A stretch of 64,000 bases of DNA from Laetmonice hystrix. Lineage: Eukaryota. Location: NCBI GenBank assembly GCA_965235115.1, contig OZ249436.1, positions 18,602,001 to 18,666,000 on the forward strand. Direction: 5' to 3'. Within the stretch, counting starts at the first letter, position 1. The number at the start of each line of letters is the position of its first letter. A program made the position numbers and the translations under genes. This document shows positions 7,215-64,000 of this stretch, piece after piece. Under the pieces are notes generated by a model. That model made no database searches. It was not told the origin of the DNA and was given only the letters and a program-made list of their open reading frames with translations.

Positions 7215-10200
7215 CTGAAACAGGCCACCACCCCTTTCATGGCTGGCATCCGCTGCAAGAAGCTTTCTATAGCTTTCTTTAATACATATAAATTCTTTCT
7301 ACAATTTCCAAAAATGGTTTACAAATGTTGTCATTTTGTTTCTGGTACTTACCAACAACTTGGTGTATTTAGGTCGCTGTTCTTGGTCTTTAATTAAACT
7401 GATGAAAGAATAAAAAATACTTATGGTTATGGCGGATGTGTATCACTGATTAAACCGACGAACGAATAAATAAATACTATTAGTTAAGTGCAAGGGAGTC
7501 ATATAAAGCTCTCAGGTAGAAAAAAAACCTACATCTTTAAGTTAATATAGTCATCTTTAAATTTATAGTCCCTTGTCATTAGGTTTCTACAATTTGTGCA
7601 AAAAATTCAGGTCTTCACTATTAAGAAGGGTCTCCTAATTTACACTTAATAAAGAATTTATCCTTTCAGAATCATATACGTTACAGGTAAATTATTTGGT
7701 AGTTCATTGAATTGAACACAAGTCAACTTTGAACCTCCAGATTTAGAACCAGACTTGAAATTGAACGCACCAAGTATTGACGAAGTTAATGAACTCTGCT
7801 GAGAAGCGTTCGTCATTATCCCTGAGAGTGGGTGGTTCGCCCTGCACCACCTGCGTGAGTTGCTCAAAGACTGAGCTCCACTTTGGGTATGGGAACTTCC
7901 CTGTTGCTACCTCAACCTGTAACAATGACGGAACAGGTGAGATCGAACTGTCGTGAAGACTTTATCAACAGCACACCAAACACCGTAACTCAAACAGGCA
8001 TTGCTAATACTCATTCCATCTACCACGTGTACAGATTTTGCTAAGGAACATTACTGATATCTGTAATGGCTAGAATACTGTATAATCCGCTGGCCAGGTC
8101 TGGGGGACCCTATTAGGATAGCCAGGTCTGGGGGAACCCTGTTTAGATCAGCTATGATTTCTGTTACATTGTATAAACCAACATTTGTTGCAACATACCA
8201 GAGTGATACCTAAGCTCCAAACGTCCGACCGCACATCATAACCTTTGTTTGACCTTGGGTCAATTCTCTCGGGCTGTCATTGCAAAAGAAACATTCGTTT
8301 ATGCTTCACGTTTGCCGACATTCCTATATCATAATAGTAAATCATGTCAGTTTCTCATTTTTTCAACAAATCAGCATTTTTTCCAACTAAAGGGCCATAT
8401 TCACTAAGCCACTGGCCGGCCTACGCTCTTGTAGCAACCACTTTTGTCGTTCTTGAGGACACCACTTTAGTAGTAATGTTTTGACCAGTTTTGTCACACT
8501 TGTCAAGGCCACGACTTTTGTCCCACTACTCTGCCCACTTTTGTCACACCGAACATTTCACCCTAAACCCCCTCATTTCTGCCAAAATCTACTTTTTCAC
8601 CCAGCCAATAAAAAGACGGAGAGCTTGATTGGAGGTGGCCAGGGTGTAAGAGCCAGACTGTGCCGGGGACCAGGGTGTGAGGTAGGTGTGTGGGGAGGTA
8701 GGCGCGCTACTATAATACTATAATAATTTTAGCTTTCTAAATTATATCACACCAGCAAATATATTGGGCTACCACCATGAATCACAGTGGTACAGACCTG
8801 CCTATCCTGTTTTCAACCATGGTGTACAATGACCCTTAAAAAAAACATAAATTTGGACCTTGTGGTGCCATAAACAGCTATTATGATGAATACGCTGTCG
8901 ATAGTTTTCTTATGGAGAAAAATCAGCCTGTGTATCTGGGCCTTTACACATAAACATCCACAGAGACAACAGAAAGACTCGAGTGACCAGCCAATGCTGG
9001 GCTTGAACTTTATTTTAGTAAAGGAATAACTCCAAAGAAAAGTTTTCATCCAAACTTAACTCTTCAAATTTAATAGGAAATTATTATGTTTGGAAATTTT
9101 ACAAAACATAATCAGATTACATTCAATCACATGGGGAGACTAGAGACTTATTCTAGAGGGAGCCAAGTTGGCAAATCGTATTTTTGACATTTAGAAAAGG
9201 TAAAGTAACAGCGCACAAACAGGTTTAAAAATCATACATTGTACGCCAGAATTGTACAAGTAGGCAGGTAGCCCAGGAGGAGGAGGAGAAGGGGGGAGGA
9301 GGAGGAGGAGGAGGGGGAGGAGGGGGGTGGAGGGGGAGGAGGAGGAGAAGGAGGAGGAGATTTTTGGGGTGAAAACTAGATTTTTAGGAGGAAATATTCG
9401 GTATGACAAAAGTGGGCAGAGTGGTGCATGACAAAAGTCGTGGCCTTGACAAGTTTGACAAAACTGGTCAGAAAATTATGACTAACGTGGTGTCCTCAAG
9501 AATGACAAAAGTGAGCGATTTTGTGACAAAAGTGGTGACCTGTGACAAAAGTGTGGCAGAATTTTTGAGCCCTGATCCTCTCTATCCCTCTCCAAAACCA
9601 TTATAGTTCTGGCTCGGGGGGGGGGGGGGAGGGGAGTTCGTGTACATGTTCTTTTAGAGACTTACTTTAGATTTTCTTGTTCAATATGCCAAAACCTTCA
9701 GAAAAATTTTGGGCAACACTCCCAGATCAAGTACGTTTTCTCTACAAACCCCAGCTAAGATTTTGTGTTAGTGCCAAGGGCCTGAACTGATGATATTCAA
9801 GTTTCATGGAATATATCGTTATTTGACAGCAATAAATTATTTATTTTGATATAATTCAATTGGTTGGGTATTCTTAACACTTTTTAGCATAAGTCATTGC
9901 CCTAAACCTTGATTTACCATACAAAACGGGGATATTTTGCTAATTTTTGATAGCACTTATTAAAATATTTGCCAACTAAGAAGTCATCAAACTTGGAATT
10001 ATGTTCAAATTGAAAGCAATTTTCTGCTAAAATTAAGTCAATTTTGTGTTTGTGCTTGTCTTTTTGTACTACAAACCAAGACTTAAAGAAAATGGTGGCC
10101 TGAGTAGGCCTAATGATATGGCTGCCAAGTGGCCATATTGGAACTGGAAGAAAAAATCCTTCGAAGTGCATCATGCCACAAGGTTAATTGATCTTCAGTT

Positions 10201-45854: not shown

Positions 45855-46100
45855 CTTGAATTGTGAACGGGAAATACTTTCGTCAGTATGCCGCAGCCGG
45901 GCGGTGAGACGACCTGTCTCCACCTCCTGCTCTGGTCTACGACGATTCTCTGTCCAGTAATCTAGCTCTTGGTATTGTTGGTAGTACTACGGGAAATATT
46001 ATCGTGCCCTGATGTCCATTTCTTGACGATGAGTCATCGATGAAAATATTCGGGAAAATCCCTTTTTACGTCATCAATACGCCGAGACTTGGTACGAGGC
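45848..46100 (-). promoter_or_regulatory. Putative MAP2K4 promoter / 5' UTR
   Basis: CpG-rich; YY1-type AAGATGGCGG over the ATG (45848-45857); AP-1 TGAGTCA 46030-46036; CRE-like TTACGTCA 46066-46073. Confidence 0.55.
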
Positions 46101-47138
46101 CATGCGAGATCGGGTTAGTTTTACTGTCCATTAACAGATGTCGCTTGCTACATATTTCGCGCCAGTCGTTCGGCAAGCCCTCCGGGGTCTCCGCTAGGGG
46201 GCATACCCGCCATTAACCATTTTTTAGGCTACCTTTGTTAATAGGCCCATCGATCTTGGATCTAGGCCCCCACCCCCAAAATAGCCATTTTTAATAGGAA
46301 AAGGGGGTCCAGGCCCCCTTTTTGAAATTTGGGGGCTAGGCCTAGGCCTATTCCCAGTCTGAAAATGCACCTTATTTTACTGGCGAAATTATAGGAATTT
46401 TATAGTGTAGGCCTACATCGCGGTGACAGTAAAGTAGTGTTGGATGACTTATGAGCAACAATAATCTAGATCTACTGTACATTTTGTATTCTGTTCAAAT
46501 TACAGTAATTACAGTATGTAACTGTTACTTCTGAAAAACTATAGGCCTACAGTAATGTACTGTAAAAACGAAAAACGGTTATTTAATGTTGCCAAATACC
46601 CTAACAGCAGTTTCCTGTAAATTAAACAACAGCGCCGATTTACAGTGTAATAGGCAGGGGGACTGCCCCCATTGCCCCCGCCCGTGGATGCCTGCGCAGC
46701 TACTCATGGGGGTATGATGGGACAGTTACCCATTGTGTCCCATAAGCCACTGTCCCATTATGTCCCACCCTAAACGTCACAAAGCTGTCCCGTCTTCCCG
46801 CTAGAGTAGATAGTGATGCATCACTATCTACGTAGGCCTAATGAATGTTTACTCTATAATGCCGAGACTAACTGTTGGTGTTAGAATAGTCAGTCATTCT
46901 TAGTTAGGCCTATAGGCTATAGAGACTTGGGGGGTGTTAAATATTTACCTGGCGGAAGTTTGGGTGCCAAGAATTCCAGGTTACAGATAAATGTGGGTCT
47001 GACGTTCGGATCCGTCAACACCAAGGCCGTGACAAAGTAGGGAATCCCAACGCCATCTGGTGGAAAGTGTAGGAGCTAGAGCCATGTCCCTTCATGAATG
47101 CCCCGTGTCCCGCCATGCCCCGCTTTCCTACCTCACCT

Positions 47139-48151
47139 GACTGTATTTTTCTTTTGAAATGCACGGGCATCAGGGGTAACCCAATTACTTTGACAATGTC
47201 CCTAAAGAGAAAAGTTGTATAGTCCTCTACAGGAATCGAACACCGGCCCCCAAGATTACTGCACCCATTCGCATAGCATTTGTTGTCGACACCCATGCCC
47301 ACTCGGCCACCGCCACTCCCCCGTGATTTGGACCCTATGTAGGTAGGCCTACCCCACCTGACTGTATTTTTCTTTTGAAATGCACGGGCATCAGGGGTAA
47401 CCCAATTACTTTGACAATGTCCCTAAAGAGAAAAGTTGTATAGTCCTCTACAGGAATCGAACCCAGGCCCTAAGATTACTGCACCCATTCGCATAGCATA
47501 AGGTGTCGACATCCATGCCCACTAGGCCACCGCCACTCCCCTAAAAAAAGGAGCTTTGGTGGTCGAGCAGGACAATGGACCCTCCCCCTACACACATCTT
47601 TTTGAAATGAGACGGAATCCATATTTTCCTAGTTAGAGCTACACATGATTTCTACCGAACATTGACTGTTAAGGTAATCCTGGCACTGGCGTAGACTGTA
47701 TTTTTCTTTTGAAATGCACGGGCATCAGGGGTAACCCAATTACTTTGACAATGTCCCTAAAGAGAAAAGTTGTATAGTCCTCTACAGGAATCGAACCCAG
47801 GCCCTAAGATTACTGCACCCATTCGCATAGCATAAGGTGTCGACATCCATGCCCACTAGGCCACCGCCACTCCCCTAAAAAAAGGAGCTTTGGTGGTCGA
47901 GCAGGACAATGGACCCTCCCCCTACACACATCTTTTTGAAATGAGACGGAATCCATATTTTCCTAGTTAGAGCTACACATGATTTCTACCGAACATTGAC
48001 TGTTAAGGTAATCCTGGCACTGGCGTAGACTGTATTTTTCTTTTGAAATGCACGGGCATCAGGGGTAACCCAATTACTTTGACAATGTCCCTAAAGAGAA
48101 AAGTTGTATAGTCCTCTACAGGAATCGAACCCAGGCCCTAAGATTACTGCA
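47139..48151 (-). repeat. 334-bp tandem array of tRNA-like (Pol III A/B box) units
   Basis: Units start at 47139 (short, diverged), 47360, 47694 and 48028 (partial). On the minus strand they carry A box TGGCC(T/G)AGTGG and B box G(G/T)TTCGATTCC about 55 nt apart, followed by TTTT; the partial unit has the B box only. Confidence 0.8.
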
Positions 48152-48397
48152 ACAATAATCTAGATCTACTGTACATTTTGTATTCTGTTCAAATTACAGT
48201 AATTATCCCATCCCCTACAGGGGGATGGGATCTTCAGATTGTACGGTTTCGTCTTCCCTATTATTATCCCATCCCCTATCCAGGGGATGGGATTTAGAAA
48301 TTGTGTGGTTTCGTCTTCCCTATTATTATCCCATCCCCCCGATAGGGGGATGGGATCTTAAAATTGTATGGTTTCGTCTTCCGTATTATTATTATTA

Positions 48398-50626
48398 TTA
48401 TCCCATCCCCTACGGAGGGGATGGGATTTAGAAATTGTGTGGTTTCGTCTTCTGTATTATTTTTGGCGTCGTAGTTGTAGTAGTAGTAGTAGTAGTAGTA
48501 GTAGTAAACTTGTATGTCTATCTCAGTCAATTTTCAAAATATCAAAATGAAATTTGGCACACATCTTGACAATGACAAAGTATGGTCAGGCATCGAATCC
48601 TGACGTCATGTAACGTCACGTCATGACGTGATGACGTCAAACGTATTATGAAAATTGAAGCCATTTTTAAGCTCATATTGGGAATTTTTTTTAAAAACCC
48701 GCCATGCCCTCATAATCGGCCAAAGGTGCTGCCTCAATTTGAGTCTTGATTTGACCTTTGACCTTTGACCTTAGGGTGAACTGGGTCATTGGTCACAAAT
48801 CGGTTAAATTGCTTCTCCTTCTCTATTTTTTGGTAAAATTCGACAATATTCGGCAAAAACACTCTCTAACGAAAGGTTCACAATACGATTCCAAGGATTA
48901 GCGATTTGACCTATTTTCGCCGAACCACGTGACTTTGAAGTTTGTCACTTTTGACATTTTTTTCTAAAACTGCTTTAGTCATATAGGAATCGTGTATTTG
49001 GTCACTAGATATGTGCTGCTATTGACGATTGGTCACTTTGCATATTTCTTTTAATAAATTTACCAATATCTTTTTTATTTATGATGAAATAATGTAATCT
49101 GACGTTGACAGGCTCTACCTTAAACCTGTTTAAGATAGCCATATACAAATACAACAATTACAAAGTGTATAGATTCAGGTATACCACTGACTGTTTAGTT
49201 CTTGTTTTGGAAAGGTAATATGGCCAGAATTGTAAGTTTTAATGGGTATAGTCTTCACTATAATATTTTTACACTCTGACAGGTGGCATCTCTGAATACA
49301 CAAATCACCTGCTGGGAGGCCAGAGCCAGGGTCGGCAGAGGGTTACGTAAGCGCTGGTGATAAGGGCCGGCCAGGCGGCCGGGTCGGCAGGCGGGTTGTG
49401 ACTCCGCCCCCTCCCTCCCAGTCAGGGTCGGTTTGGTGGAGGATGATTGTGTATTCAGAACTGACATAACTGAATTAGCTGTGCCTTTGAACTGTGTTAC
49501 TGTCTCCATGCATTTGTTTTTAAATCTTACATAGGAGAGCTGAATAAAACACTAGGCTACTACTGATTGTTGGCTGTGGAGTTCAAGAGACACGGCAAAC
49601 TTTTGGCCAGCTGCACTTGGTTTCAGCGTGAGCCAACAGCCTGGTGTGGATGGCATTCGCACCTATTGTTCTTGAGTCTGTGATATTTGTCATGATGCCC
49701 GTAACGGGTATAATCCATATAATCCATCAGGACTATAATATTTCATAATGTCAAAAGAATACTTAGTAACTTCCATGTGAATGGAAATGACGCTATTGTT
49801 GGGACAATAATTAAATGAGAGAAAAATGTAGGTAATGATAGAAAACCATTCGGGAAATGGGACCTACCTGTATTGCTTGGCAATCAGAGTCTCTAGATAT
49901 ATAATTACGATTTTAATGTATCCTTCCACAATGATTAATATCAAAATAGGTAGATATACCATGCAGTAGATATCTATGATCCCTTTCGACATGTCAGGGG
50001 CGTATCTGCACTCTTTCTTTTTAAAGAATTGACATTATTGTTAGGCTAGGTCTAAATACAGCCACGTATCTAGGATTTTCAGCAGGGTGGTCGCCGAAAT
50101 GTTTTTTTTTTAAATTAGAAGCCTTTTATGGACCCATTTAGTGCACTATATTTTTTGTAGGCCTATTCATCACTCAACCAGTTTAAAATAGGCAGAATGC
50201 TTTGCACCTGTTCGTTCGATGGTGTCCCGCTGAATCTAAGGAAAAATGAATCTATGCTCTGGGGGAGCAGGAGAGGGGGTCCAACCCCCGGACCCCTACA
50301 TGCGCCTGAAATACTTTGAGAAACTTCACATCTAGCTCCAGAAGTAACGTTCTTTGACTTTCTAAATTCAAGTCCCCCCCCCCCGCGCCCATGTTTGCCT
50401 TGCACCTTTGGTGCCCCTCCTTTCTTGCGGTACTGGATCTGAGCCTGCATGAAAGCAGGATCATGACGTATGAGATTATAATGATATTAAGATTATTTTC
50501 CTAAGCCTCCAACTCGTAAACGGTGAAAGATTGAGCCATGGTTACTATTGAACAGGAATAGGAAGTCATATATCACGTGACTCCCCGGGGATGGGATCTA
50601 TTGTGGTATCGCCACAACGTGTCTAG
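48398..50626 (+). mobile_element. Complete HINE-like element, TACGGA-loop subfamily
   Basis: Head, (GTA)n, body, tail GACTCCCCGGGGATGGGATCTATTGTGGTATCGCCACAACGTGTCTAG. Confidence 0.85.
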
Positions 50627-51741
50627 TTATTCCCGTAGTAGTTGTAGTAGTTGCATTCGTGCATCTATCTCAGTCATTTATAAAGATATCCAAATGAAAC
50701 TTGGCAGTCACATTCCTCATGGTAGTCAGAATCGACAAATATAATCTTTACGTCATGTGACGTCACATCATGACGTCATGACGTAATTTGTATTTTAGAC
50801 TTAGAGGCCATTCTTCAACCCATATTCCATAGTTTCCTAAAACTTTTCATACAATAATAATCTCCCATAGACCCTTCTTATCTAGGTCCATTACTTTGAC
50901 CTATTTCCTCTGATGTCATGGAAAAGTAGGTCACATGCTCCAAAGTGGTCAAATCGCTACTGATCCGCCATTTTTAAATAGAATCTGACTATTTTTTGTA
51001 GACAGACTTTCTGTAGGCAGCTTTACTGCAAAACTTCAGCAATAAGCCATTTGACCTATTTTCGCTGTACCACGTGACTTTGAAGTTTGTCACTTTTGAC
51101 ATTTTTTTCTAAAACTGCTTTAGTCATTTAGGAATCGTGTATTTGGTCATTAGATATGTGCTGCTATGGACGATTGATCACTTTGCATAATTATTTTCAT
51201 AGATTTACCAATAATTTTTAATTTATGATGAAATATCTGTAATCTGACTTTGACAGGCTCTACCTGAAACGTGTTTAAGATAGCCACATGCAAATACAAC
51301 AATTACAAAGTCTATAGATTCAGGTATACCACTGGTTCTTTAGTTCTTTTTTTGGAAAGGTAATCTGACCAGAAATGCAAGTTTTAATGGATAACAAAAT
51401 ATTTTTACACTGATGGTTGGCATCTCTCAATATACAGAACGCCCGCTGTGTGGGTTACGTAAGTGCTGGTGATAAGGGCCGGCCGCCCGGTCGGTCGGTT
51501 GACTAGTCCCCCCTCCCTCCCAGTCAGGCTGGGGTTGGAGGAATGTGATTGTGTATTCAGAATACACAAAGTGACAATGGACTGGGACGGGGAAAACCGT
51601 GAATGAAGGGATATATAGGGGCACCAATAGAGAGTCTAGGGAAGAAGGAGGAGAGAAAGGATACTATAGTTGACGATCAGGAACATATAGACACTGACCG
51701 CGTGGCGCATATAATATTAGATGGGTCAAAGAAGACGTGTG

Positions 51742-53021
51742 TTGAGTTTGAGTTTGAGTTCGAGTTTGGTTATTTCAGGAGCAGGCTTGTTTGAGATACA
51801 TTAAGGGATGAGGAAGTTCTAAAATGAACTTATGTACATCCTTATTAAATTACAACATAATATATAACTTAAATGGTGACACAAGCAGAGATACATTAAT
51901 ACGTAATTAAATGACACATCTATAGGGTATAAATGACAGGGTATACAAGCGGTAATACATTGCTAAATAGATAGATACAAAACTATCACAATGGTGTATT
52001 ATAAGTGATGTTGCTAGAGGAAGATAGAATATGTATGTAGAAAATTATAAATAAAACAATGGTGATGATGATGAGGAAAGGAGATGAGAATGAATTAACT
52101 GGCTTCAAGTTTAACAAACAAGTATTGTTTTGTTTTCCGTTTGAAACAATGGATCGAAATATTAAGGTCAATGTTACCCTCTTTCATAAGAATATTTTCG
52201 GAACTTGGAAAAAGAGAGATCGTTCGAGAATTTGTCCTCCTATTGCCGGTAAAATGTAGTGGTCAGGCTGCCGAGTGTTTCTGGTATTTAATTGATATCT
52301 TTTATTAAAAAGATTACATAAGACGCCAGGAGCTAAATTATGATGTATTTTAAACATATAACCAGCAACTGAAAGGTGGTAAATTTGTTCAAGTGGAAGT
52401 ATTTTAGCCTCCTTATATAGTGGTAATGAATGAGTTCTTTGCGGTTTATTAAAGACTAGTCTGATAACTTTCTTTTGAAGAACAAACAATTTGGAAAGAA
52501 GGGTTTTATTTGCCCTACCCCAGACCGTAATACCCATATGAAAGTATGGGTAAAGAAAAGAGTAATATAACCTTATAAGAATATATTGGTCAAGGGTTGA
52601 TCGAGACTTATGAATTATTCCAATTGATTTTGAGACTTTGTTGCAGATATATTTTATATGGGATTGCCATGTCAAGTTAGATTCGATTATATACCCTAAG
52701 AATTCAGTTTGCGTTACCTCTTCGATTGGCTGGCCATTTATTTTTAGTGCTAAGCTCTGGTGAGATAATTTACTGAGATGACATGGAAAGATAATATAAT
52801 TCGTTTTTTTCTATATTAATTGAGAGCTTATTCGGATTTAACAAAGTAACAATCTTGTCTAACTCATTATTAATAACAGATGTTGGATTACTGTTATTTC
52901 TATAAGTGTAGAAGAAATCACTGTCATCTGCAAATAGAATTGGATTCATCATTTTTGATACTTTGGCAAGATCATTTATGTAAATTAAGAAAAAAAGAGG
53001 ACTCAGGAATTGTTGTTTCAA
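51742..53021 (-). mobile_element. 5'-truncated CR1/L2-clade LINE (RT C-terminal part, frameshifted)
   Basis: LSPLFFLIYINDL..LFADD..INNELDKI..NKLSIN (52770-53021) and TWQSHIKYICNKVSKSIGII..LYYSFLYPY..GITVWG (52184-52675); (AAACTC)n tail at 51742-51768. Confidence 0.9.
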
Positions 53022-53689
53022 TTGTCAGCTGCTATTGACGATTGATCACTTTGCATAAATCTTTTCATAAATTTAGCAATAATTTTTAATTTATGATGAA
53101 ATATCTGTAATCTGGCTTTGACAGGCTCTACCTTGAAACGTGTTTAAGATAGACACATACAAATACAAAAATTACAAAGTCTATAGATTCAGGTATACCA
53201 CTGACTGTTTAGTTCTTTTTTTGGAAAGGTAGTCTGGCCAGAATTCTAAGTTTTAATGGATAAGAATGTAAGAATGTAAATATGTTTACACTGACGGTTG
53301 GCATCTCTCAATACACAAACCACCCGCTGTGCATGGCCGGCCGCCTCTCCCTGCCCGGTGTTGGCAGCATTACGTAACTGCTGCTGATAAGGTCGGGCGG
53401 TGACTCCCAGTCAGGATGGGTTGATGTTGATGGACCCTTGTGCTGGGAACAGACTTAATTGAATAGCTAGGCATTTGTATTTATATAAAACTGTAGGTAT
53501 TACTGTCTAATATATTATATTCTTGAATCTTATATTGGAGGAGAGCGGAATAAAACAACACTGATGATATAAGCCGTCTTCTTGAAGTTAAGAGAGAACT
53601 ATTGTCCAGCTGCGCCCTATATTTTCCTTCCAGTCAGGGTGGGGTTGGAGGAATGTGATTGTGTATTCAGAATACACAAAGTGACAATT

Positions 53690-54850
53690 TGCCATAGGGA
53701 AGTGAGCTAATGCTGAGATCACAGTGAGGTCACTTTTTCCTCACAGTTGTGAAGTCGCAATCATTATGATGTCAGTATGATCTCATGAGGTCAGAATGAG
53801 ATATAATTCCGACATCACCCTGATATCACATAAATGTCAGCTGGTGAGATCACACATTGATCTCACAGCAATCCCATAATGGTATCACTATGCGAGAACA
53901 AATAGTGAGATCTTTCTGATGTCAGAATGTTATAAAATTCCGACATCACCTTCATATCATGTAAATCTCAGCTGCTGAGATCACACATTGGACTCACAGC
54001 AATCTCATAATGACTTCACTATGTGAGAACAAATAGTGAGATCTTTCTGTCAGAATGTTATGTGATACATAAATCTCAGCTGGTAAGATCACACATTGAT
54101 CTCACAGCAATCTCATAATGACTTCACTATGTGAGAACAAATATTGAGATCTTTCTGATGTCAGAATGTTATAAAATTCCGACATCACCTTGACATCATG
54201 TAAATCTCAGCTGGTGGCGCTGATATCATTGAGATTAACTAGACTGTCCGAAACACAGTCAATAGGTGAACTTCTAGCGACTTCAAATAATTCACATGTC
54301 ATTCAAAAACAACAGTTACTATTCATTGTGTAACATTACGCTTTATCTTTTCGCTAATTGTGAAAAGAACAATATAGCGACGTAGAGATGATATTTTGTT
54401 TTTAAACAACCCAGTATAGAAAACACCAATTTGAATTTCCGACGGGAAACATCAATAGTGAGGACAGGGGTAAGGGTGTTAAGCGTCAGTGCTTAACTGG
54501 CACAGGAGATACTACAGCGTGCCCACACAATGGTTAGAACTGCCTAAGCCAGGATTTTTTCTAGAATGTCTCTGTGGGAACCCATGAAGGTGGTGCGACA
54601 ACGTCATTTCAAAAATATATTGGTACTGTTATGTCAGAGAGATGTCAAAATGATCTCAGTGTTAGAAGAAATTGAGATCATGGTTAGATTGCTATGAGAT
54701 TGCTGTAAGATCATATTCTTCTAAGGAAAGCCCAATATATTGGTACTGTTTTATGTCAGAGAGATGTCAAAATGATCTCACAGTGAGAGATCAAATGGTG
54801 AGATCACAGTGAAAATATAGCTGTAGGAAAGAAGAAATAGCTATAGGAAA
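53690..54850. repeat. Inserted repeat with ~130-bp tandem units (53790-54215) and GAGATCAC/GATCTCA motifs
   Basis: TTCCGACATCACC...TCAGCTGGTGAGATCACACATTG...GAGAACAAATAGTGAGATC recurs about 3.5 times; a second short duplication at 54616/54735. Confidence 0.65.
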
Positions 54851-55462
54851 GAAAAAATTGATCGTCGGGCGGTAGTCTTGCGCTAGCACTGAAGGGCCTG
54901 CCTGGCGCCGCCTGGCATGGGCACCTCCCTCTATAATCCCCACTCTTTCTTTTTGACGAATTGACAAAAATTATTGTTAGGCTAACTCAAAATACAGCCA
55001 CGGGCCCAGGATTTTCGGCAGAGGGGTCTCCAAAATCGAAATGAAAATGAAAATCGATGTTGATAGATCAACAATATTATTGAAACAGCTATAACTCTGA
55101 AAGGGGGCCCGGTAAAGCTATGGTTACTATTGAAGCTATAATAGGAACATGTTCTTTCAAAAGATACCAAAATCTATTATGTAGGGTGATGTATCACGTG
55201 ACAATGACGTCACTGATAGATGACCAATAATAATTATTGAGGTCATATAGGAAGAAATAATATATGCTCTTTCGATCTACGGGCCTATCGATGACATGGA
55301 GGTAGTCTAACATGATAATGTATCTATGATTTTCATTGCCAGGGGATGGGATACAAGATGTTGGCCCAAGCCACATCGGCGCTAGTTATTATTATTATCC
55401 CATCCCCTATCCAGGGGATGGGATCTAGAAATTGTGTGGTTTCGTCTTCCCTATTATTATTA

Positions 55463-57718
55463 TTATCCCATCCCCTACGGAGGGGATGGGATTTAGAAAT
55501 TGTGTGGTTTCGTCTTCTGTATTATTTTTGGCGTCGTAGTTGTAGTAGTAGTAGTAGTAGTAAACTTGTATGTCTATCTTAGTCAATTTTCAAAATATCG
55601 AAATGAAATTTGGCACACATCTTGACAATGACGAAGTATGGTCAGGCATCGAATCCTGACGTCATGTGACGTCACGTCATAACGTGATGACGTCAAACGT
55701 ATTATGAAAATTGAAGCCATTTTTAAGGTCATATTGGGAATTTTTTTAAAAACCCGTCATGGCCTCATAATCGGCCATAGGTCCTGCCTCAATTTGAGTC
55801 TTGATTTGACCTTTGACCTTTGACCTTAGGGTGAACTGGGTCATTGGTCACAAATCGGTTAAATTGCTTCTCCTTTTCTATGTTTTGGTAAAATTCGACA
55901 ATATTCGGCAGAAACACTCTCTAACGAAAGGTTCACAATACGATTCCAAGGATTAGCGATTTGACCTATTTTCACCGAACCACGTGACTTTGAAGTTTGT
56001 CACTTTTGACATTTTTTTCTAAAACTGCTTTAGTCATATAGGAATCGTGTATTTGGTCAATAGATATGTGCTGCTATTGACGATTTGTCACTTTGCATAT
56101 TTCTTTTCATAAATTTACCAATATCTTTTTTATTTATGATGAAATAATGTAATCTGACGTTGACAGGCTCTACCTTAAACCTGTTTAAGATAGCCATATA
56201 CAAATACAACAATTACAAAGTGTATAGATTCAGGTATACCACTGGCTGTTTAGTTCTTGTTTTGGAAAGGTAATATGGCCAGAATTGTAAGTTTTAATGG
56301 GTATAGTCTTCACAATAATATTTTTGCCGTCTGACAGTTGACATCTCTGAATACACAGATCTCCCACTGTGATGCGGCCGCCGGTCCCTGGCCAGGCCGG
56401 GAGAGAGTACGTAAGTGCTGGTGATAAGGGCCGGCCGGCCGGCCTACTCCCCCTCCCTCCCAGTGAGGGAGGAATATGATTGTGTATTCAGGTTCTATCC
56501 CCCATGATATCTTTCCACGAAATGTTTGGGCAGGGGTTAGGGTTAATGTCAGGGATAGGGGTAGGGTAGGGATATGTTTTGGGGAGGTGTAGGAATAGGG
56601 GTTAGGGGTTAGGGATAAGGTCAGGGCCATGGATCTTTCCTTTCCACCAAATTTCGTGGAGTTTAAGTTATCATGGGCGATATACCTGTATTCAGAACTG
56701 ACTTAGCTGTGCCTTTGAACTGTAGGTGTAACTGCCTAATGCATTTGTTTTTGAATCTTATGTAGGAGAGCTGAATAAAACAATACTACTGATTGTTGGT
56801 TGTGGAGTTCAAGTGACACGACAAGCTTTTGGTCAGCTGCACTTGGTTTAGCCTGAGCCAACAGTCTGGTGTGGATGACATTCGCACCTATTGGTAAAGT
56901 TTCATGATGACTACGTGTTGGCTAAATGGCGAGAGATAGAAGTGAACGAACGGTGTGCACAGTAGACAGGTATATGCAGTCGTCCTGGCGAGCGGCCCAA
57001 TAGATGCAGCAATCACTTGAGCGGGTCTGCGGAGGGACAAGGGGAACGCTCTGTGAGAAATACTTAAGGACTGTTTATAGAAGAGGTACCTTCTCAGTCA
57101 TATAACATGCCAGCTATCGGGCGGCAGCTCTCAATCAAATGAGCCGGTCAGGGGCGGTCAGTTAATTGGACGTGGGCCATCGGCCAATGACCAGTGGCCA
57201 TCCTTTAGACTGGGACTGGGGCAAAAACGTGAACGAGGGGAAGAGCACCAAGAGAGAGAGAGAGAGAGACTAGGGGAGAAGGAGGAGAGAGAGAGCGCCG
57301 ACCGGCGCCGCCGGGCGTGGGCACATCCCTCTATATCCCCACTCTTTTTTTTGAAGAATTGACAAAAAATTATTGTTTGGCTAGCCCCGGGTCCAGGATT
57401 TTCAGCAGAGGGGTCACGGGAAGTCTTTAAAAATTAAAAGCTCTTAGAACAGATTTCCCGCCTTTTAGGGGCCATTTTAGGGCATTATATTTTATGGATT
57501 CATCACTCAACCAGTTATAGCCGGAATGCATGCTCTTTTATTTGAGTCCAAGATTTATTACGTAGTGTGACGTGTCTCCTCATCATTGGCATCTTCTAAA
57601 GCTTATAAGTCATGAACTGTGCAAGATCGAGCCATAGTTTACCCTACTCAGAACATGTCATATATCACGTGACTCCCCGGGGATGGGATCAATTGTGGTA
57701 TCGCCACAACGTGTCTAG
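55463..57718 (+). mobile_element. Complete HINE-like element, TACGGA-loop subfamily (second copy)
   Basis: First ~850 bp nearly identical to 48398-49270; same tail type. Confidence 0.85.
56491..56686. mobile_element. 196-bp MITE with degenerate TTAGGG repeats, 8-bp TSD
   Basis: TIR GGTTCTATCCCCCATGATA / TATCATGGGCGATATACC; TGTATTCA duplicated; empty site in the sister element near 49450. Confidence 0.75.
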
Positions 57719-58212
57719 TTTTTTGCGTAGTAGTAGTAGTAGTAGTAGTCGTAAACAGTACCTCTATCTCAGTCATTTTTTAAGATATCTCAATCAAACT
57801 TGGCACACGTCTTGACCATGACAAAGACAGGTCACACAATCAGTCATGATGTCACGTGACGTCACGTCATGACGTCATGCCGTCAAACGTGTTTGGGACA
57901 TTGAGGGCCATTTTTAAAGTTCATATTTGGAATTTTCAGGATCTATCATGGCGTTGTGATCAGGCAAAGGTCTAGCCTAAAATTGACCCTTCATTTGACC
58001 TTTGACCTTTGACCTTAGGGAGAACTGGGCCCGACCTCACAAATTGGTTAAATCGCTACTTCTTCTTCATTTATTGGTAAAATTTGACAATATTGGGCAG
58101 GAACACTCTCTAACAAGTGTTTTAATAGAAACATCCAAGGATAAGCGATTTGACCTATATTGGCTGAATCACGTGACCTTGAAATTTTCAAAAGTGGCCA
58201 GTTTAGCTATCT

Positions 58213-59200
58213 ATGGCTACAACTTCTAAACAGTGCCAGATAGGGCCATAGTTACTATTGGACACGAATAGGAAGTCATAATGCTCTTTCATTTGGCACC
58301 ATTATTTTTCAGGTCACGTGACCTATGATGTCATAACGATGTCATCAATATTTTCTCAGGGCTATAACTTGTAAATGGTTGAAGATAGAGCCATAGTTAC
58401 TATTAAACACTAATAGGAAGTCATATATGTTCTTTCACTTGACACCATTATTTTTCAGGTCACGTGACCTATGACGTCATAATGATGTCAACCATGTTTT
58501 CTCAGGGCCATCACTTGTAAATGGTTGAAGTTAGAGTCATAATTACTATTAAAGATGAATTGGAAGTCATATATGCTCTTTTATTTGGCACCATTATATT
58601 TCAGGTCACGTGACCTAGGCATGATAAGAATGTCATTCATAATAATTATTTTCTCAAGGATATAGCTTGTTAATGGTTGAAGTTAGAGCCATAATTGCTA
58701 TTAAACACTAATAGGAAGTCATGTATGCTCTTTCATTTGGGACCATTATTTTTTAGGTCACGTGACCTCTGACGTCATAACGATGTCATGCATGTTTTAT
58801 CAGGGATACAACTTGTAAATGGTTGAACATAGAACCACAGTTACTATCAGAAACAAATAGGAAGCCACATATGCTCTTTTTTCTGGCACCGTTTTTAGGT
58901 CACGTGACCTGTGATGTCATAAGGATGGTATCCATATTTTCTCAGGGCTATAACTTGTAAATGGTTGAAGTTAGAGCCATAGTTACTATTAAACACTAAT
59001 AGGAAGTCATATACGCTCTTTCATTTGGCACCATTATTTTTCACGACACGTGACCTATCAGGTCATAATGATATCATCCATATTTTCTTAGGGCTAGAAC
59101 TTGTAAATGGTTGAAGTTAGAGCTATACCTACTATTAAACACTAACACTAACAGGAAGCTATATATATGTTCTTGTATTCGACACCATCATTTTGAATAG
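58213..59200 (+). repeat. ~146-bp satellite array inside HINE body (about 7 units)
   Basis: Unit starts at 58358, 58504, 58656, 58802, 58944, 59090; nearly every unit has AGGTCACGTGACCT and a TGACGTCA-like motif. Confidence 0.9.
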
Positions 59201-59782
59201 CCCTAGATCTCTCTATGAACAAATCAGAACATGGTAGACGGGACCCCCCAGGGGATGGGATCCATTGTGGTTATCACCACAACGGGTCTAGTTTTTTGCG
59301 TTGTAGTAGTAGTAGTAGTTGTAAACAGTACCTCTATCTCAGTCATTTTTCAAGATATCTCAATCAAACTTGGCAGAGATCTTGATCATGACAAAGTCAG
59401 ATCACACAATCAGTCATGACGTCACGTGACATCACGTCATGACGTCATGACGTCAAGCGTGTTTGGGATATTGAGGACCATTTTCAAAGTTCATATTTGG
59501 AATTTCCAAGATCTATCATGGCGTTATGATCAGGCAAGGGTCTAGCCTAAAACTGACCCTTCATTTGACCTTTGACCTTTGACCTTAGGGAGAACTGGGT
59601 GCTAGGTCACAAATCGGTTAAATCGCTTCTTCTTCTTAATTTATTGGTAAAATTTGATAATATTGGACAGGAACACTCTCTAATAAGGGTTTTAATAGAA
59701 TCATCCAAAGATAACCGATTTGACCTATATTCGATGAATCACGTGACCTTGAAGTTTTCAACAGTGGCCAGTTTAGCTATCT

Positions 59783-60620
59783 ATGGCTATAACTTCTAAA
59801 CAGTGCCAGTTAGGGCCATAGTTACTATTGAACACGAATAGGAAGTCATATATGCTCTTTCATTTGGCACCATTATTTTTTAGGTCACGTGACCTATGAC
59901 GTCATAACGATGTCATCAATATTTTCTCAGGGCTATAACTTGTAAATGGTTGAAGATAGAGCCATATTTACTATTAAACACTAATAAGGAGTCATATATG
60001 CTCTATCAATTCGCACCATTATTTTTAAATCACGTGACCTATGACGTCATAACGATGTCATCCATATTTTCTCAGGGCTATAACTTCTAAACAGTGCCAG
60101 ATAGGGCCATAGTTACTATTGAACACGAATAAGAAGTCATATATGCTCTTTCATTTGACACCATTATTTCTCAGGTCACGTGACCTATGACATCATAATG
60201 ATGTCATCCATATTTTCTCAGGGCTATCACTTGTAAATGGTTGAAGTTAGAGCCATAGTTACTATCGAAGACGAATAGGAAGTCATATATGTTCTTTCAC
60301 TTGGCACCATTGTTTTTCAGGTCACGTGACCTATGACATCATAACGATGTCGACAACATTTTCTCATAGCTATAACTTGCAAATGGTTGAAGTTAGAGTC
60401 ATAGTTACAATTAAACACTAATAGGAAGTCATATATGCTCTTTCATTTGGCACCATTATTTTTCAGGTCACGTGACCTATCAGGTCATAACGATATCATC
60501 CATATTTTCTTAGGGCTATAACTTGTAAATGGTTGAAGTTAGAGCTATACCTACTATTAAACACTAACACTAACAGGAAGCAATATAAATACTCTTCATT
60601 TGACACCATCATTTTGAATA
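59783..60620 (+). repeat. ~146-bp satellite array inside HINE body (about 6 units)
   Basis: Unit starts at 59929, 60074, 60220, 60366, 60512. Confidence 0.9.
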
Positions 60621-60769
60621 GCCGTAGCTCTCTCTACTAAATCAGGACATGGTAGACGGGACCCCCCAGGGGATGGGATCCATTGTGGTTATCACCGCAA
60701 CGGGTCTAGTTATTATCCCATCCCCTATCCAGGGGATGGGATCTAGAAATTGTGTGGTTTCGTCTTCCC

Positions 60770-60809
<40 letters not shown>

Positions 60810-61307
60810 TTTTGCGTAGTAGTAGTAGTAGGCGTAAACAGTACCTCTATCTCAGTCATCTTTCAAGATATCTGGATCAAACTTGGCACACATCTTGACC
60901 ATGATAAAGTCAGCTCAGACAATCATTCATGACGTCATATGACGTCACGTCATGACGTCACGTCATGACGTCATGAGGTCAAACGTATTTTGGACATTGG
61001 GGCCATTTTTAAAGTTCACATTGGGAATTTCAAAACCCTATCACGTCATTATAATCAGGCAAGGGTCTTGCCTAAACGTGACCCTTTATTTGGCCTTTGA
61101 CCTTTGACCTTAGGGAGAATTGGGTCCTAAGTCACAAATCGGTTAAATCGCTTCTCCTTCTTCATTTTTTGGTCAAATTTGACAATATTGCACAGAAAGA
61201 CTCTCTAACCAGAGCTTCACCAGAAATTTCCACGCATAAGCGATTTGACCTATTTTCGCTGAATCACGTGACCATAAAGTTTTGAACAGTGGTCAGTTTA
61301 GGTATCT

Positions 61308-62796
61308 ACGGCTATAACTCGTAAACGGTGCCAGATAGGGGCATGGTTATTATTGAACACCAATAGGAAGTATATGCTCTTTCATTTGGCACCAATATTT
61401 TTCAGGTCACGTGACATATGACGTCATAACGATGTCATCAATATTTTCTCAGGGCTATAACTTCTAAATGGTTGAAGTTAGAGCCATAGTTACTATTAAA
61501 CACTAATAGGAAGTCATATATGCTCTTTCATTTGATACCATTCTTTTTAGGTCACGTGACCTATGACGTCATACCGATGTCATCAATACTTTCTCAGGGC
61601 TACAACTTGTAAATGGTTGAAGATAGAGCCAGACTTACTATTAAACACTAATAGGAAGTCATACATGCTCTTTCACTTGACACCATTATTTTTCAGGTCA
61701 CGTGACCTATGACGCCATAATGATGTCAACCATGTTTACTCAGGGCTATCACGTGTAAATGGCTGGGGTTATAGTCATAGTTACTATTGAAGATGAATAG
61801 GAAGTCATATGCTCTTTCATTTAATACCATCATTTTTCAGGTCCCGTGACTTATGACGTCATAACGTTGTCATCAATACTTTCACAGGGCTAGAACCTGT
61901 AAATGGTTGAAGTTAGAGCCATAGTTACTATATTTAACACTAATAGGAAGTCATATGCTCTTTCATTTGATACCATTCATTTTCAGGTCACGTGACCTAT
62001 GACGTCATACCGGCTATAACTTGTAAATGGTTGAAGTTAGAGCCATAGTTACTAGTAAAGACTAGGCCCTAATAGGAAGTCATATATTTCTTTTCGGTGT
62101 AGTATTATGAGTAAACAGTATATCTCAGTCAGTTTTCAAGATATCTCAATCAAACTTGGCACATATATTGACCATGGCAACGTCAGGTCACACAATCAGT
62201 CATGAGGTCACGTGACGTCACGTCATGACGTCATGACGTCATTATTTTTCAGGTCACGTGACCTATGACGCCATAATGATGTCAACCATGTTTACTCAGG
62301 GCTATCACGTGTAAATGGCTGGGGTTATAGTCATAGTTACTATTGAAGATGAATAGGAAGTCATATGCTCTTTCATTTAATACCATCATTTTTCAGGTCC
62401 CGTGACTTATGACGTCATAACGTTGTCATCAATACTTTCACAGGGCTAGAACCTGTAAATAGTTGAAGTTAGAGCCATAGTTACTATATTAAACACTAAT
62501 AGGAAGTCATATGCTCTTTCATTTGATACCATTCATTTTCAGGTCACGTGACCTATGACGTCATACCGGCTATAACTTGTAAATGGTTGAAGTTAGAGCC
62601 ATAGTTACTAGTAAAGACTAGGCCCTAATAGGAAGTCATATATTTCTTTTCGGTGTAGTATTATGAGTAAACAGTATATCTCAGTCAGTTTTCAAGATAT
62701 CTCAATCAAACTTGGCACATATATTGACCATGGCAACGTCAGGTCACACAATCAGTCATGAGGTCACGTGACGTCACGTCATGACGTCATGACGTC
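61308..62796 (+). repeat. ~146-bp satellite array plus a 556-bp tandem duplication
   Basis: Units at 61451, 61596, 61742, 61886; 61684-62239 is repeated almost exactly at 62240-62796. Confidence 0.85.
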
Positions 62797-64000
62797 AAAC
62801 GTGTTTGGGACATTAAGGGCCATTTTTGTAAGGTTAGCCTATATTGGGAATTTCCAAGATCTACCATAGCGTTATGATCAGGCAAGGGTCTAGCCTAAAA
62901 CTGACCCTTCATTTGACCGCCGTACTGTACATTCCGCTCAGCCACCTCCCCAGCTTGGAGCCATCACTGACCGGGACTTGGACGCAGCAAGTCCCGTCAG
63001 CAAGCAGTTGGCCTGCCGGTGTCCTGCCGCGATATGGCCGCGCACTGAACAATTTAACTGGGATAAATCCAGTTAGTTTGACCGGAGTTTTCAATTTTGG
63101 GCACAGAAAACGTATAAAGTACATAATAAGTAAGGCCAATAAGACTTAGGTTGGGTCATAAAATACAATTTAAATACACAATCGTTTAAAGTATGATTGC
63201 TCCGCGCACGACAACCAACGCCATAATCTATTTTGAGCTTTGCACGCCTAAAATTCGAATCTATAAACATGTCAATTGGACTTTTAACAGTCACAATACA
63301 AGAACAAAAATTCTCGAAGACATTTCTTTTTTGGGGTGTGATGCCAATGAGTTAAGAGTGATAAATTCAAAACAAAACATGCTCATGTTTCAGACATGCC
63401 AAGACGTTCGAAGCAACAGAGAGCTGCAAAGAAAAGGGCAGCGCGAAGACCCCTAGAGGTAACAGTATACAACTATTCTGGCTTCACTTAACCATTTAAA
63501 GCAGTGATATACAGGTCAGACTTATATTTAGCAGTACTTGTATTTATCAGGGATGAAACTTCCAAAATAGTGGGTTTCCACTTGTTTATCCCCAGGAGTC
63601 CTGTATATGTCTCTCCTCGCACATAAATTTTTCTGCCCTTTTCCGGTTAGCCCCTATCGGTGAATTACCGTAAAAGATCATGTACAGTCAGACCCCTTTA
63701 AATAGTCCCTCTAATGCTAAATCCATGGATATTTGGATGGTGAACCTAGAGAAGAGTTTTTGGTCCATTTTGTTATCATTAACCGGAATGACCCATTTTC
63801 CGGGTCCAGATGGAATTAATTATGAACATTTGTCGTCACGTTTGTGTCATTAAACTGGACGGCCGACCTTTGAATTACCATTGGTGTCTCGGGCAAGCCA
63901 GGGTGTGAATGGGCAACACCTATTGTGTGTATGAAGCACAGGAGCTTACTACCTTGCATTTCAAACAAAATGAACTCTCTTTGAGCTTAAACGAATTTTC

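Follow-up and report, generated by a model that had tools for sequence, protein, structure and literature searches.

DINE-1/HINE elements are non-autonomous Helentrons that, in the accessible part of their description (Thomas, Vadnagara, and Pritham 2014, PMC4067079), combine subterminal inverted repeats (subTIRs), a 5′ hairpin formed by an inverted repeat (IR) and the subTIR, a microsatellite, central tandem repeats, and a 3′ stem-loop; they insert at TT or in T-rich DNA without duplicating the target, and their autonomous partners encode Rep, helicase, and endonuclease. The Cg_HINE elements of the Pacific oyster show, in the accessible sections of their description (Vojvoda Zeljko et al. 2020, PMC7492417), the module order 5′ subTIR and IR, microsatellite, satellite-like repeats, 3′ subTIR and palindrome, together with a preference for TT, the absence of a target-site duplication, and insertion into repetitive DNA. 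Here we describe a family of elements from Laetmonice hystrix that resembles both in these respects and whose copies lie stacked one inside another in a 64,000-nucleotide stretch of the genome (contig OZ249436.1, G000:C1:18602001-18666000; hereafter the window). Our reading, to which we assign a rough probability of 0.75, is that this is a young Helentron/HINE family that integrates preferentially behind the 5′ ends (heads) and the 3′ ends (tails) of resident copies, giving nested stacks.

The family differs from both described systems in its choice of target. Preferential entry into the element's own 5′ region is not described in the accessible part of PMC4067079, and in that of PMC7492417 the word "nested" is absent and no site-specific self-insertion is reported, the comparison with Cg_HINE being one of descriptions. 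The accessible text of Yang and Barbash (2008, PMC2374699) makes no mention of nested or same-orientation insertion, and a review of oyster elements (PMC12628747), as far as it is accessible, reports "shuffled" loci with parts of elements inside other elements and gives no rule. A literature search, in part over such incomplete texts, returned no account of site-specific self-nesting for animal HINEs. The strict stacking was pointed out in a note made from the sequence alone (the original prediction), which knew of no earlier description; for a fungus, however, self-insertion is already in print. According to the accessible parts of Chellapan et al. (2016, PMC5148889) and of PMC13342296 (2026), the Helitron2-like FoHeli1 elements of Fusarium oxysporum have two to five 5′ termini, their first 31-85 nt being repeated. 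These multiple termini are ascribed there to self-insertion near the 5′ end, and the re-mobilization of composites is modeled. As in FoHeli, short 5′ pieces (61-76 nt here) are repeated before a full copy at several loci. Unlike FoHeli as described in those texts, the present family retains all of the outer bodies and 3′ termini, has 42% of its heads and at least 12 subtypes involved, and is an animal HINE family with satellites. With the outer bodies and their 3′ ends all in place, the nesting here is demonstrated and need not be inferred. The habit of self-insertion is already known from related fungal elements, and what is new is a base-exact, abundant, and cross-subtype case.

A pattern search of the window recovered seven copies of the head hairpin TCCCATCCCC-N5-7-GGGGATGGGA, all on the + strand and starting at 48206, 48267, 48329, 48401, 55398, 55466, and 60716, where none was expected (100 shuffles); these are the seven heads, with their loops and positions, that had been predicted. 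Five tails, each laid out as GGGGATGGGA, a short palindrome, and ..CTAG, have their last bases at 50626, 55385, 57718, 59291, and 60709, exactly where five body ends had been placed in last-in-first-out order. Across the region the order of tokens is HHHHTTHHTTTH, which parses as H1[H2[H3[H4-B4]B3; H5[H6-B6]B5]B2; H7..., where H denotes a head and B a body (Table 1). When the inner elements were spliced out, alignment showed that colinear outer elements were restored. Spliced E2 (H2, 9 bp, and B2; 1489 bp), whose tail ends in ..GGGTCTAG and whose pad, the T-rich tract behind the hairpin, contains E3 and E5 side by side, aligned with uninterrupted E7 over positions 1-1367 against 1-1374 (83%), the alignment crossing the splice, and with spliced E5 over positions 1-1395 (87%). 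The bodies of the TATCCA copies therefore do match that of H7, as had been proposed.

The remaining copies fit the same arrangement. E3 has a tail of its own type, ..GCCACATCGGCGCTAG, and an identical pairing of head and tail was found at locus L023; its body begins with TTATTCCCGTAG, the native continuation of the CCGATAG head type (L002). Compared over its full length with seven other TACGGA copies of ~2.2 kb, E4 shows 95.2-98.4% identity (97.4-98.4% for six of them); it is 94% identical to E6 over the first 983 bp, and E6 is 96.6% identical to L008in1 over 1.86 kb. The claimed agreement between head and tail types holds in the window, and the further claim that the secondary insertions share one orientation and one spot and lack a target duplication was borne out both in the window and in the genome.

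Two brackets are open at the edge of the window. A genome-wide search for tails located two on the + strand past the window, at C1:18683414 (a variant of the TATCCA type) and at C1:18684841 (the TACAG type, that of H1), and we fetched and inspected 1.5 kb around them. Directly after the first stands TTCTTTGCGTCGTAG, the native continuation of TACAG heads; the body B1 (1426 bp) leads to the TACAG-type tail at C1:18684841-18684879, which is followed by unrelated flank. H1 and B1 together measure 1487 bp; from end to end this sequence matches a solo TACAG element (L003) at 98.9% identity, and with four further carriers of the TACAG type its identity is 98.8-99.5%. Thus the two open brackets close 17-19 kb beyond the window with tails of the right types, so that all brackets close, and the entire stack spans 34.7 kb.

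The innermost of these two brackets is that of E7. Genome-wide listings of the head and tail patterns contain no exact family head or tail between H7 and the first outer tail, and E7 therefore extends from 60713 to G000:C1:18683453 (window-equivalent 81453) and measures 20,741 bp. The original prediction had ended this copy at 62918; what begins at 62919 is instead an unrelated repeat resembling a miniature inverted-repeat transposable element (MITE). Some 40 scored copies of this repeat, 73-91% identical and spread over many contigs, start at base 1 of the query, and inverted matches of bases 1-105 lie beside them, whereas the sequence at 63215-64000 matched only itself. A copy of E7 truncated at 62918 is ruled out by the presence of this repeat together with the tails beyond the window.

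Each copy of the family opens with TTA and the hairpin (TCCCATCCCC, loop, GGGGATGGGA), followed by a 16-nt spacer, TTTCGTCTTC, YNTA(TTA)n, and a T-run or (GTA)n; the body, often with 146-bp repeats, comes next, and the copy closes with GGGGATGGGA, a short palindrome, and ..CTAG. The subTIRs, (A)TCCCATCCCC at 3 nt from the 5′ terminus and GGGGATGGGA(T) at 29-34 nt from the 3′ terminus, are present in 7/7 heads and 5/5 tails. The 5′ hairpin has a 12-bp stem and a folding energy of -14.2 kcal/mol (z = -5.9), and none of 200 shuffles folded as well. The 3′ palindrome, TTGTGG..CCACAA, forms a stem of 6-7 bp and lies 9 nt ahead of the closing CTAG; its fold energy alone is non-significant (z = -1.9 and -1.2). 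Microsatellites of (TTA)n and (GTA)n stand behind the head, and arrays of the 146-bp repeat are found in B5, B2, and E7.

The ends can be placed to the base. At the 24 other loci and in the window, all heads that lie in unrelated DNA have (A/G)TTA in front of them, and behind each tail, whatever its surroundings, stands a T, which is nearly always the first of TT; at its shortest, a tail-to-head junction reads CTAG-TTA-TCCC. The intact TACGGA pad, TGTATTATTTTTGGCG (TGTATTA followed by TTTTTGGCG), and the occupied pad, TGTATTA(TTATCCC...CTAG)TTTTTGGCG, match base for base. Thus the element is TTATCCC...CTAG, and its insertion between a purine and TT neither duplicates nor removes any base. Its flanks, R^TT, leave the cut ambiguous by one or two T, so that T^T is allowed and the insertions are compatible with the TT rule of Helentrons; an A^T cut in the style of Helitron1 is one of the three readings that the flanks permit. 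The HINE/DINE-1 anatomy that had been recognized in the window was recovered in each of its parts, namely the subterminal repeats, the hairpins or palindromes at both ends, the microsatellites, and TT insertion without duplication. We consider it quite likely that the family is of Helentron type and consists of non-autonomous HINEs, whose heads fall into at least 12 subtypes, and of long copies that encode RepHel. A canonical Helitron (Helitron1; 5′-TC...CTRR-3′, with a 3′ hairpin only) was set aside on account of the 5′ hairpin, the inverted repeats, and the TTATCCC...CTAG ends.

The last-in-first-out arrangement was also found elsewhere. We fetched 26 stack-bearing stretches of contig C1 and dropped L006, which equals L005, and L007, which overlaps L008, leaving 24 loci and, with the window, 25. 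Their token strings (H, head; T, tail) are mostly balanced, for example HHTT, HHHTTT, and HHTHHTT. When heads and tails were paired last-in-first-out, their types were concordant in 27 of 29 outer pairs, both misses falling at L017, as compared with 29 of 61 under first-in-first-out pairing; the concordance check suggested along with the original prediction thus came out in its favor. In 30 of 32 cases (13 of 14 where the types were mixed) the enclosing head's native continuation resumed after the inner tail; of the two misses, that at L013 is in fact a match, displaced by the rule used for stripping repeats. Once spliced, the outer copies regained the lengths of their families: 1485-1504 bp for TACAG, 1073-1080 bp for CAAGTG, and 2220-2224 bp for homotypic TACGGA pairs. 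No clear case of a chimera joining an outer head to an inner tail was seen among 60 paired elements at the sampled loci.

The genome as a whole (627 Mb) contains 2871 head hairpins and 2544 tails. An exact pad motif accompanies 1846 of the heads, and 781 of these (42%) have another head within 3-33 nt downstream. The genome-wide hairpin search and the stacked fraction, both proposed as checks, support the idea that several subfamilies enter one another's 5′ region far above the availability of targets. Tails abut heads without a spacer (CTAG-TTA-TCCC) at 488 junctions. Among the first 100 of the 781 pad junctions the lengths were 56 nt (51 junctions), 59 (29), 62 (9), 65 (6), 68 (3), 71 (1), and 58 (1). 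The distance from stem to junction, taken over the 56 junctions of the 25 loci, was 33 nt (33 junctions), 36 (14), 39 (5), 35 (2), 42 (1), and 48 (1). These 56 junctions comprise 29 distinct ordered pairs of outer and inner type, and stacks reach five heads in varied orders. A genome-wide pattern search found no reversed element after a pad, as would follow from the presence of the R^TT target on only one strand of the T-rich pad. In this the family resembles the telomere-capping Helitrons of Paramecium, for which the accessible part of PMC13085455 reports an absolute orientation bias arising from one-strand insertion into a strand-asymmetric repeat; the target there is a host repeat, the telomere, whereas here it is the element's own end. 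Oriented, duplication-free nested insertion at a fixed spot is real and genome-wide.

Table 1. Elements and repeats of the stack (window positions unless a contig is named)
Feature	Coordinates	Strand	Description
E1, 5′ part (H1, loop TACAG)	48203..48263	+	TTA, 12-bp-stem hairpin, 16-nt spacer, conserved TTTCGTCTTC, CCTATTA
E1, remainder	G000:C1:18683454-18684879	+	body B1 (1426 bp) and tail, beyond the window
E2 (loop TATCCA)	48264..60709	+	head 48264-48325, pad remnant 55386-55394, body B2 59292-60709
E3 (loop CCGATAG)	48326..55385	+	head 48326-48397, body B3 50627-55385; contains E4
E4 (loop TACGGA)	48398..50626	+	innermost, complete, 2229 bp; full-length matches elsewhere
E5 (loop TATCCA)	55395..59291	+	head 55395-55462, body B5 57719-59291; contains E6; spliced 1641 bp
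E6 (loop TACGGA)	55463..57718	+	innermost, 2256 bp; variant of the TACGGA subfamily by similarity to E4 and L008in1
E7, 5′ part (loop TATCCA)	60713..64000	+	uninterrupted head, long (TTA)n
146-bp satellite-like central repeats	B5 58241..59145; B2 59785-60567; E7 61310-62009, 62240-62565	+	found with Tandem Repeats Finder (TRF)
MITE-like repeat inside E7, unrelated	62919..63214	+	~300 bp, inverted ends; its start is where the end of B7 had been placed

The central repeats of Table 1 have a period of 146, with 4.8-6.2 copies and 80-85% matches (TRF). Body B3 holds a second, unrelated tandem repeat at 53786-54172, with periods of 131 and 108 bp and ~2 copies; at 4.8 kb, as against 4.1 kb for the spliced CCGATAG copy of L023, B3 probably carries extra inserted DNA. 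The flanks of E1 share 8 bases (TTACAGTA), at window 48190-48202 and at G000:C1:18684880-18684887, the left copy ending 1 nt before the junction and the right copy standing directly at it. This repeat is absent at the other outermost copies; it may be coincidental or stem from a duplication that was already there. Degenerate tail-like sequences of the CAAGTG/CGATA type (GGAAATGGGA..CCTGTATTGCTTGGCAATCAG..CTAG), which may be old relatives, lie at 44244-44288 (+), 4 kb upstream of the stack, and at 49853-49900, inside E4. No tRNA genes were found in window positions 44000-64000.

Nested composites have been remobilized whole. L011 and L015 share a TACGGA-in-TACGGA composite of 4.44 kb at 99.2% identity, and L008 and L014, where the contexts differ, share a composite of 5.69 kb at 96.4%; L005 and L006 are one segmentally duplicated segment. 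To judge from their similarity, the copies are young, some reaching 99.9% identity and the TACAG carriers being ~99% alike. The original prediction had seen in the stack a time-ordered record of insertion, with inner elements closer to consensus than outer ones. The identities lend no support to younger inner copies: means and maxima of leaf and parent copies overlap, and homotypic parent-child identity ranges from 72% to 99.8%. Since composites are remobilized whole and the inner copies are not measurably the younger ones, the stack cannot serve as a reliable clock.

The transposase is plausibly present in the genome. At least 125 matches to Helitron_like_N were found over contigs C1-C32, most of them in uninterrupted frames of 1600-3634 aa, and 12 of the frames also hold Exo_endo_phos ~3 kb downstream, the combination that marks Helentrons, as summarized in the accessible part of PMC13085455. 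The genome is thus unusually rich in Helentron transposase genes that look intact. On C1 below 24 Mb all three Rep matches in long frames (1737-2902 aa) have a same-strand family tail 7.0-8.6 kb downstream; left out of this count were the matches at 18534489 (a 209-aa frame) and at 24169285 (362 aa, with two stop codons, and beyond the tails listed). Within the span of E7 there is a Helitron_like_N match on the same strand (C1:18675844-18676437) in an open frame of 2518 aa. Both E7 and the long TATCCA element of L009, which sits inside a TACAG pad, have a TATCCA head, a Rep frame, and a TATCCA-type tail in order, by coordinates alone. Beyond the 146-bp repeats, the interior of E7 gave one weak match to the L009 element (298 bp, 70.8%). 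It joins window 63380-63634 to the reverse strand of L009 at 9243-9538, around a short ATG-started open frame at 63390-63453, and may represent a shared part of autonomous copies.

Helentrons favor TT and T-rich DNA (PMC4067079, accessible part), and the stacks could in principle reflect only such a general preference for T-rich or (TTA)n DNA, heads being hit for their tract alone and copies inside transposons persisting as harmless. In keeping with this, the outermost copies occupy short T-rich sites of the form TNA^TT and most pads carry (TTA)n; the original prediction likewise named a (TAT)n tract as the target. TACGGA pads, however, lack a microsatellite, their insertions falling at TGTATTA^TTTTT, and even so TACGGA-in-TACGGA accounts for more junctions than any other type pair (10/56). 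Moreover, of the 12 arrays of (TTA)≥6 in C1 from 0 to 13.4 Mb one lies inside a family pad, and no head was found beside any of the other 11, which are free, as against nine pad junctions in the same stretch. Thus the microsatellite alone is not the target. TTATT is common, at 4.8 per kb in window positions 1-48000; this corresponds to ~3 million sites genome-wide, whereas pads number a few thousand. Survival bias, moreover, cannot yield a site fixed to a single nucleotide. Estimated from these counts, resident heads and resident 3′ ends are favored by two to three orders of magnitude, the two favored places being 33 nt (or 33+3n) past a resident 5′ hairpin and directly after a resident 3′ CTAG. 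We judge a general preference for T-rich DNA quite unlikely to be the whole explanation.

It is also unlikely, if somewhat less so, that self-targeting is rare and that a few founder composites were amplified by transposition or segmental duplication. The recurrence of composites at L011/L015 and L008/L014, the single duplicated segment of L005/L006, and the dominance of TACGGA-in-TACGGA are what such amplification would produce. It would not account for the 29 ordered type pairs or for the varied orders of stacks of up to five heads, near-identical TACAG carriers (98.8-99.5%) hold different passengers at different loci, and each level of nesting would still require one pad insertion at the same site. 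That the head clusters are tandem arrays, generated by rolling-circle over-replication, truncated copies, or slippage of a 62-bp unit, is highly improbable. TRF does report a 62-bp period with 4 copies, tandem and 3′-truncated Helitron arrays have been described (as cited in the accessible parts of PMC7492417, PMC8268682, and PMC5148889), and the 488 spacer-free tail-to-head junctions could partly be concatemers. Adjacent heads nevertheless differ in loop and subtype, outer bodies reappear after inner tails in last-in-first-out order, and tail-to-head neighbors often differ in subtype or size (L024, L014, and the window). We give the least weight of all to an assembly artifact in a repeat-rich region. 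The structure is known from the assembly only: the three sequencing runs that contain 53-55% of the words exist as contigs of only 130-280 bp in repeats, and the joints seen when these short contigs were placed on the stack come from paralogous copies. On the other side, exactly the same junctions are found at hundreds of sites, with coherent brackets, restored family lengths, and unique flanks, which a mis-join would not produce.

This dependence on the assembly is one of several points that weigh against preferential integration behind resident ends. All 24 sampled loci lie on contig C1 and were selected for holding stacks, and, because composites are copied as units and by segmental duplication, junction counts overstate the number of independent events. 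The absence of reversed inserts is to be expected from a strand-asymmetric target alone and so adds no separate evidence for recognition of the hairpin; the mode of site recognition is something that we infer. When the 33 nt after the head hairpin were compared with tails in 8 subfamilies, the two were no more alike than shuffled sequences (z -1.1 to 1.6). Finally, the RepHel frame in the span of E7 may belong to E7 or to another element inside it, and it is known by its Rep (Helitron_like_N) match, no endonuclease domain having been observed.

How might preferential integration behind resident ends come about? New copies, which enter between a purine and TT without duplication or loss, would integrate in single-stranded form. 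They land downstream of the 5′ signals of the recipient and a long way from the 3′ ones, leaving its terminal signals intact, and the recipient would therefore stay mobile. A recipient that is hit again, or that moves with its passengers, would then give rise to last-in-first-out stacks and composite elements. The transposase could select the site by recognizing the resident head (the hairpin and the invariant TTTCGTCTTC), with Rep perhaps binding at the 5′ hairpin; alternatively, the unpaired T-rich tract beside a stable GC-rich hairpin could supply the single strand for integration. The distance of 33 nt to the site equals the 29-34 nt that separate the 3′ inverted repeat from the 3′ cut. 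The idea that the head is a sequence copy of the 3′ end (a pseudo-3′-end) was dropped, as distances alone agree. Because the distance is equal and the sequences are not alike, only a ruler-type model was kept, and we put the odds of it at about even. In its strongest form, which we advance tentatively and against somewhat unfavorable odds, the 5′ end of the family (hairpin, TTTCGTCTTC, and T-rich tract) would be a true attachment site, a signal of ~60 nt read by Rep/helicase/endonuclease as a ruler that places copies exactly 33 nt downstream in one orientation, an evolved safe harbor with growth by passengers.

The bacterial HUH elements IS200/IS605 and IS91 transpose as single strands, have hairpin ends, and insert in one orientation at a short motif, their own end assisting in its choice; they are prokaryotic, much smaller, and built on another enzyme architecture. 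We take them as a working analogy for how a resident end might guide integration, with no claim of membership.

The family is strongly clustered in a few megabase-scale blocks, at G000:C1:23.6-24.2 Mb and 25.6-26.1 Mb and at C2:38-40 Mb, where heads, tails, and tail-to-head junctions follow one another on the same strand over long stretches; the blocks may be heterochromatic or pericentric. In a marine metagenome run (X1), 24 aligned contigs were 95-100% identical to pieces of the region, including window 47504-47867, and 14 of them were at least 99% identical; evidently, host DNA is present in the marine sample. Two scans of metagenomes with the head patterns, made for independent assemblies, gave no match.

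Target choice by Helitron-type elements is poorly understood, and this genome offers hundreds of base-exact natural integrations into one defined site. With so many events, and with Rep/helicase/endonuclease frames that in many cases look intact, the rule of 33 nt past the 5′ hairpin, or directly after a 3′ end, can be tested at the bench. For annotation, the stacks serve as a warning that stacked 5′ ends are nested full elements and not tandem fragments. They also show concretely how HINEs that carry satellites can build up into composite blocks rich in repeats. Should the 5′ end be a true attachment site that serves as a ruler, then for the first time a rule of target recognition would be defined for a rolling-circle transposase of eukaryotes, and nature would offer a template for integrating single-stranded DNA at a specific site.

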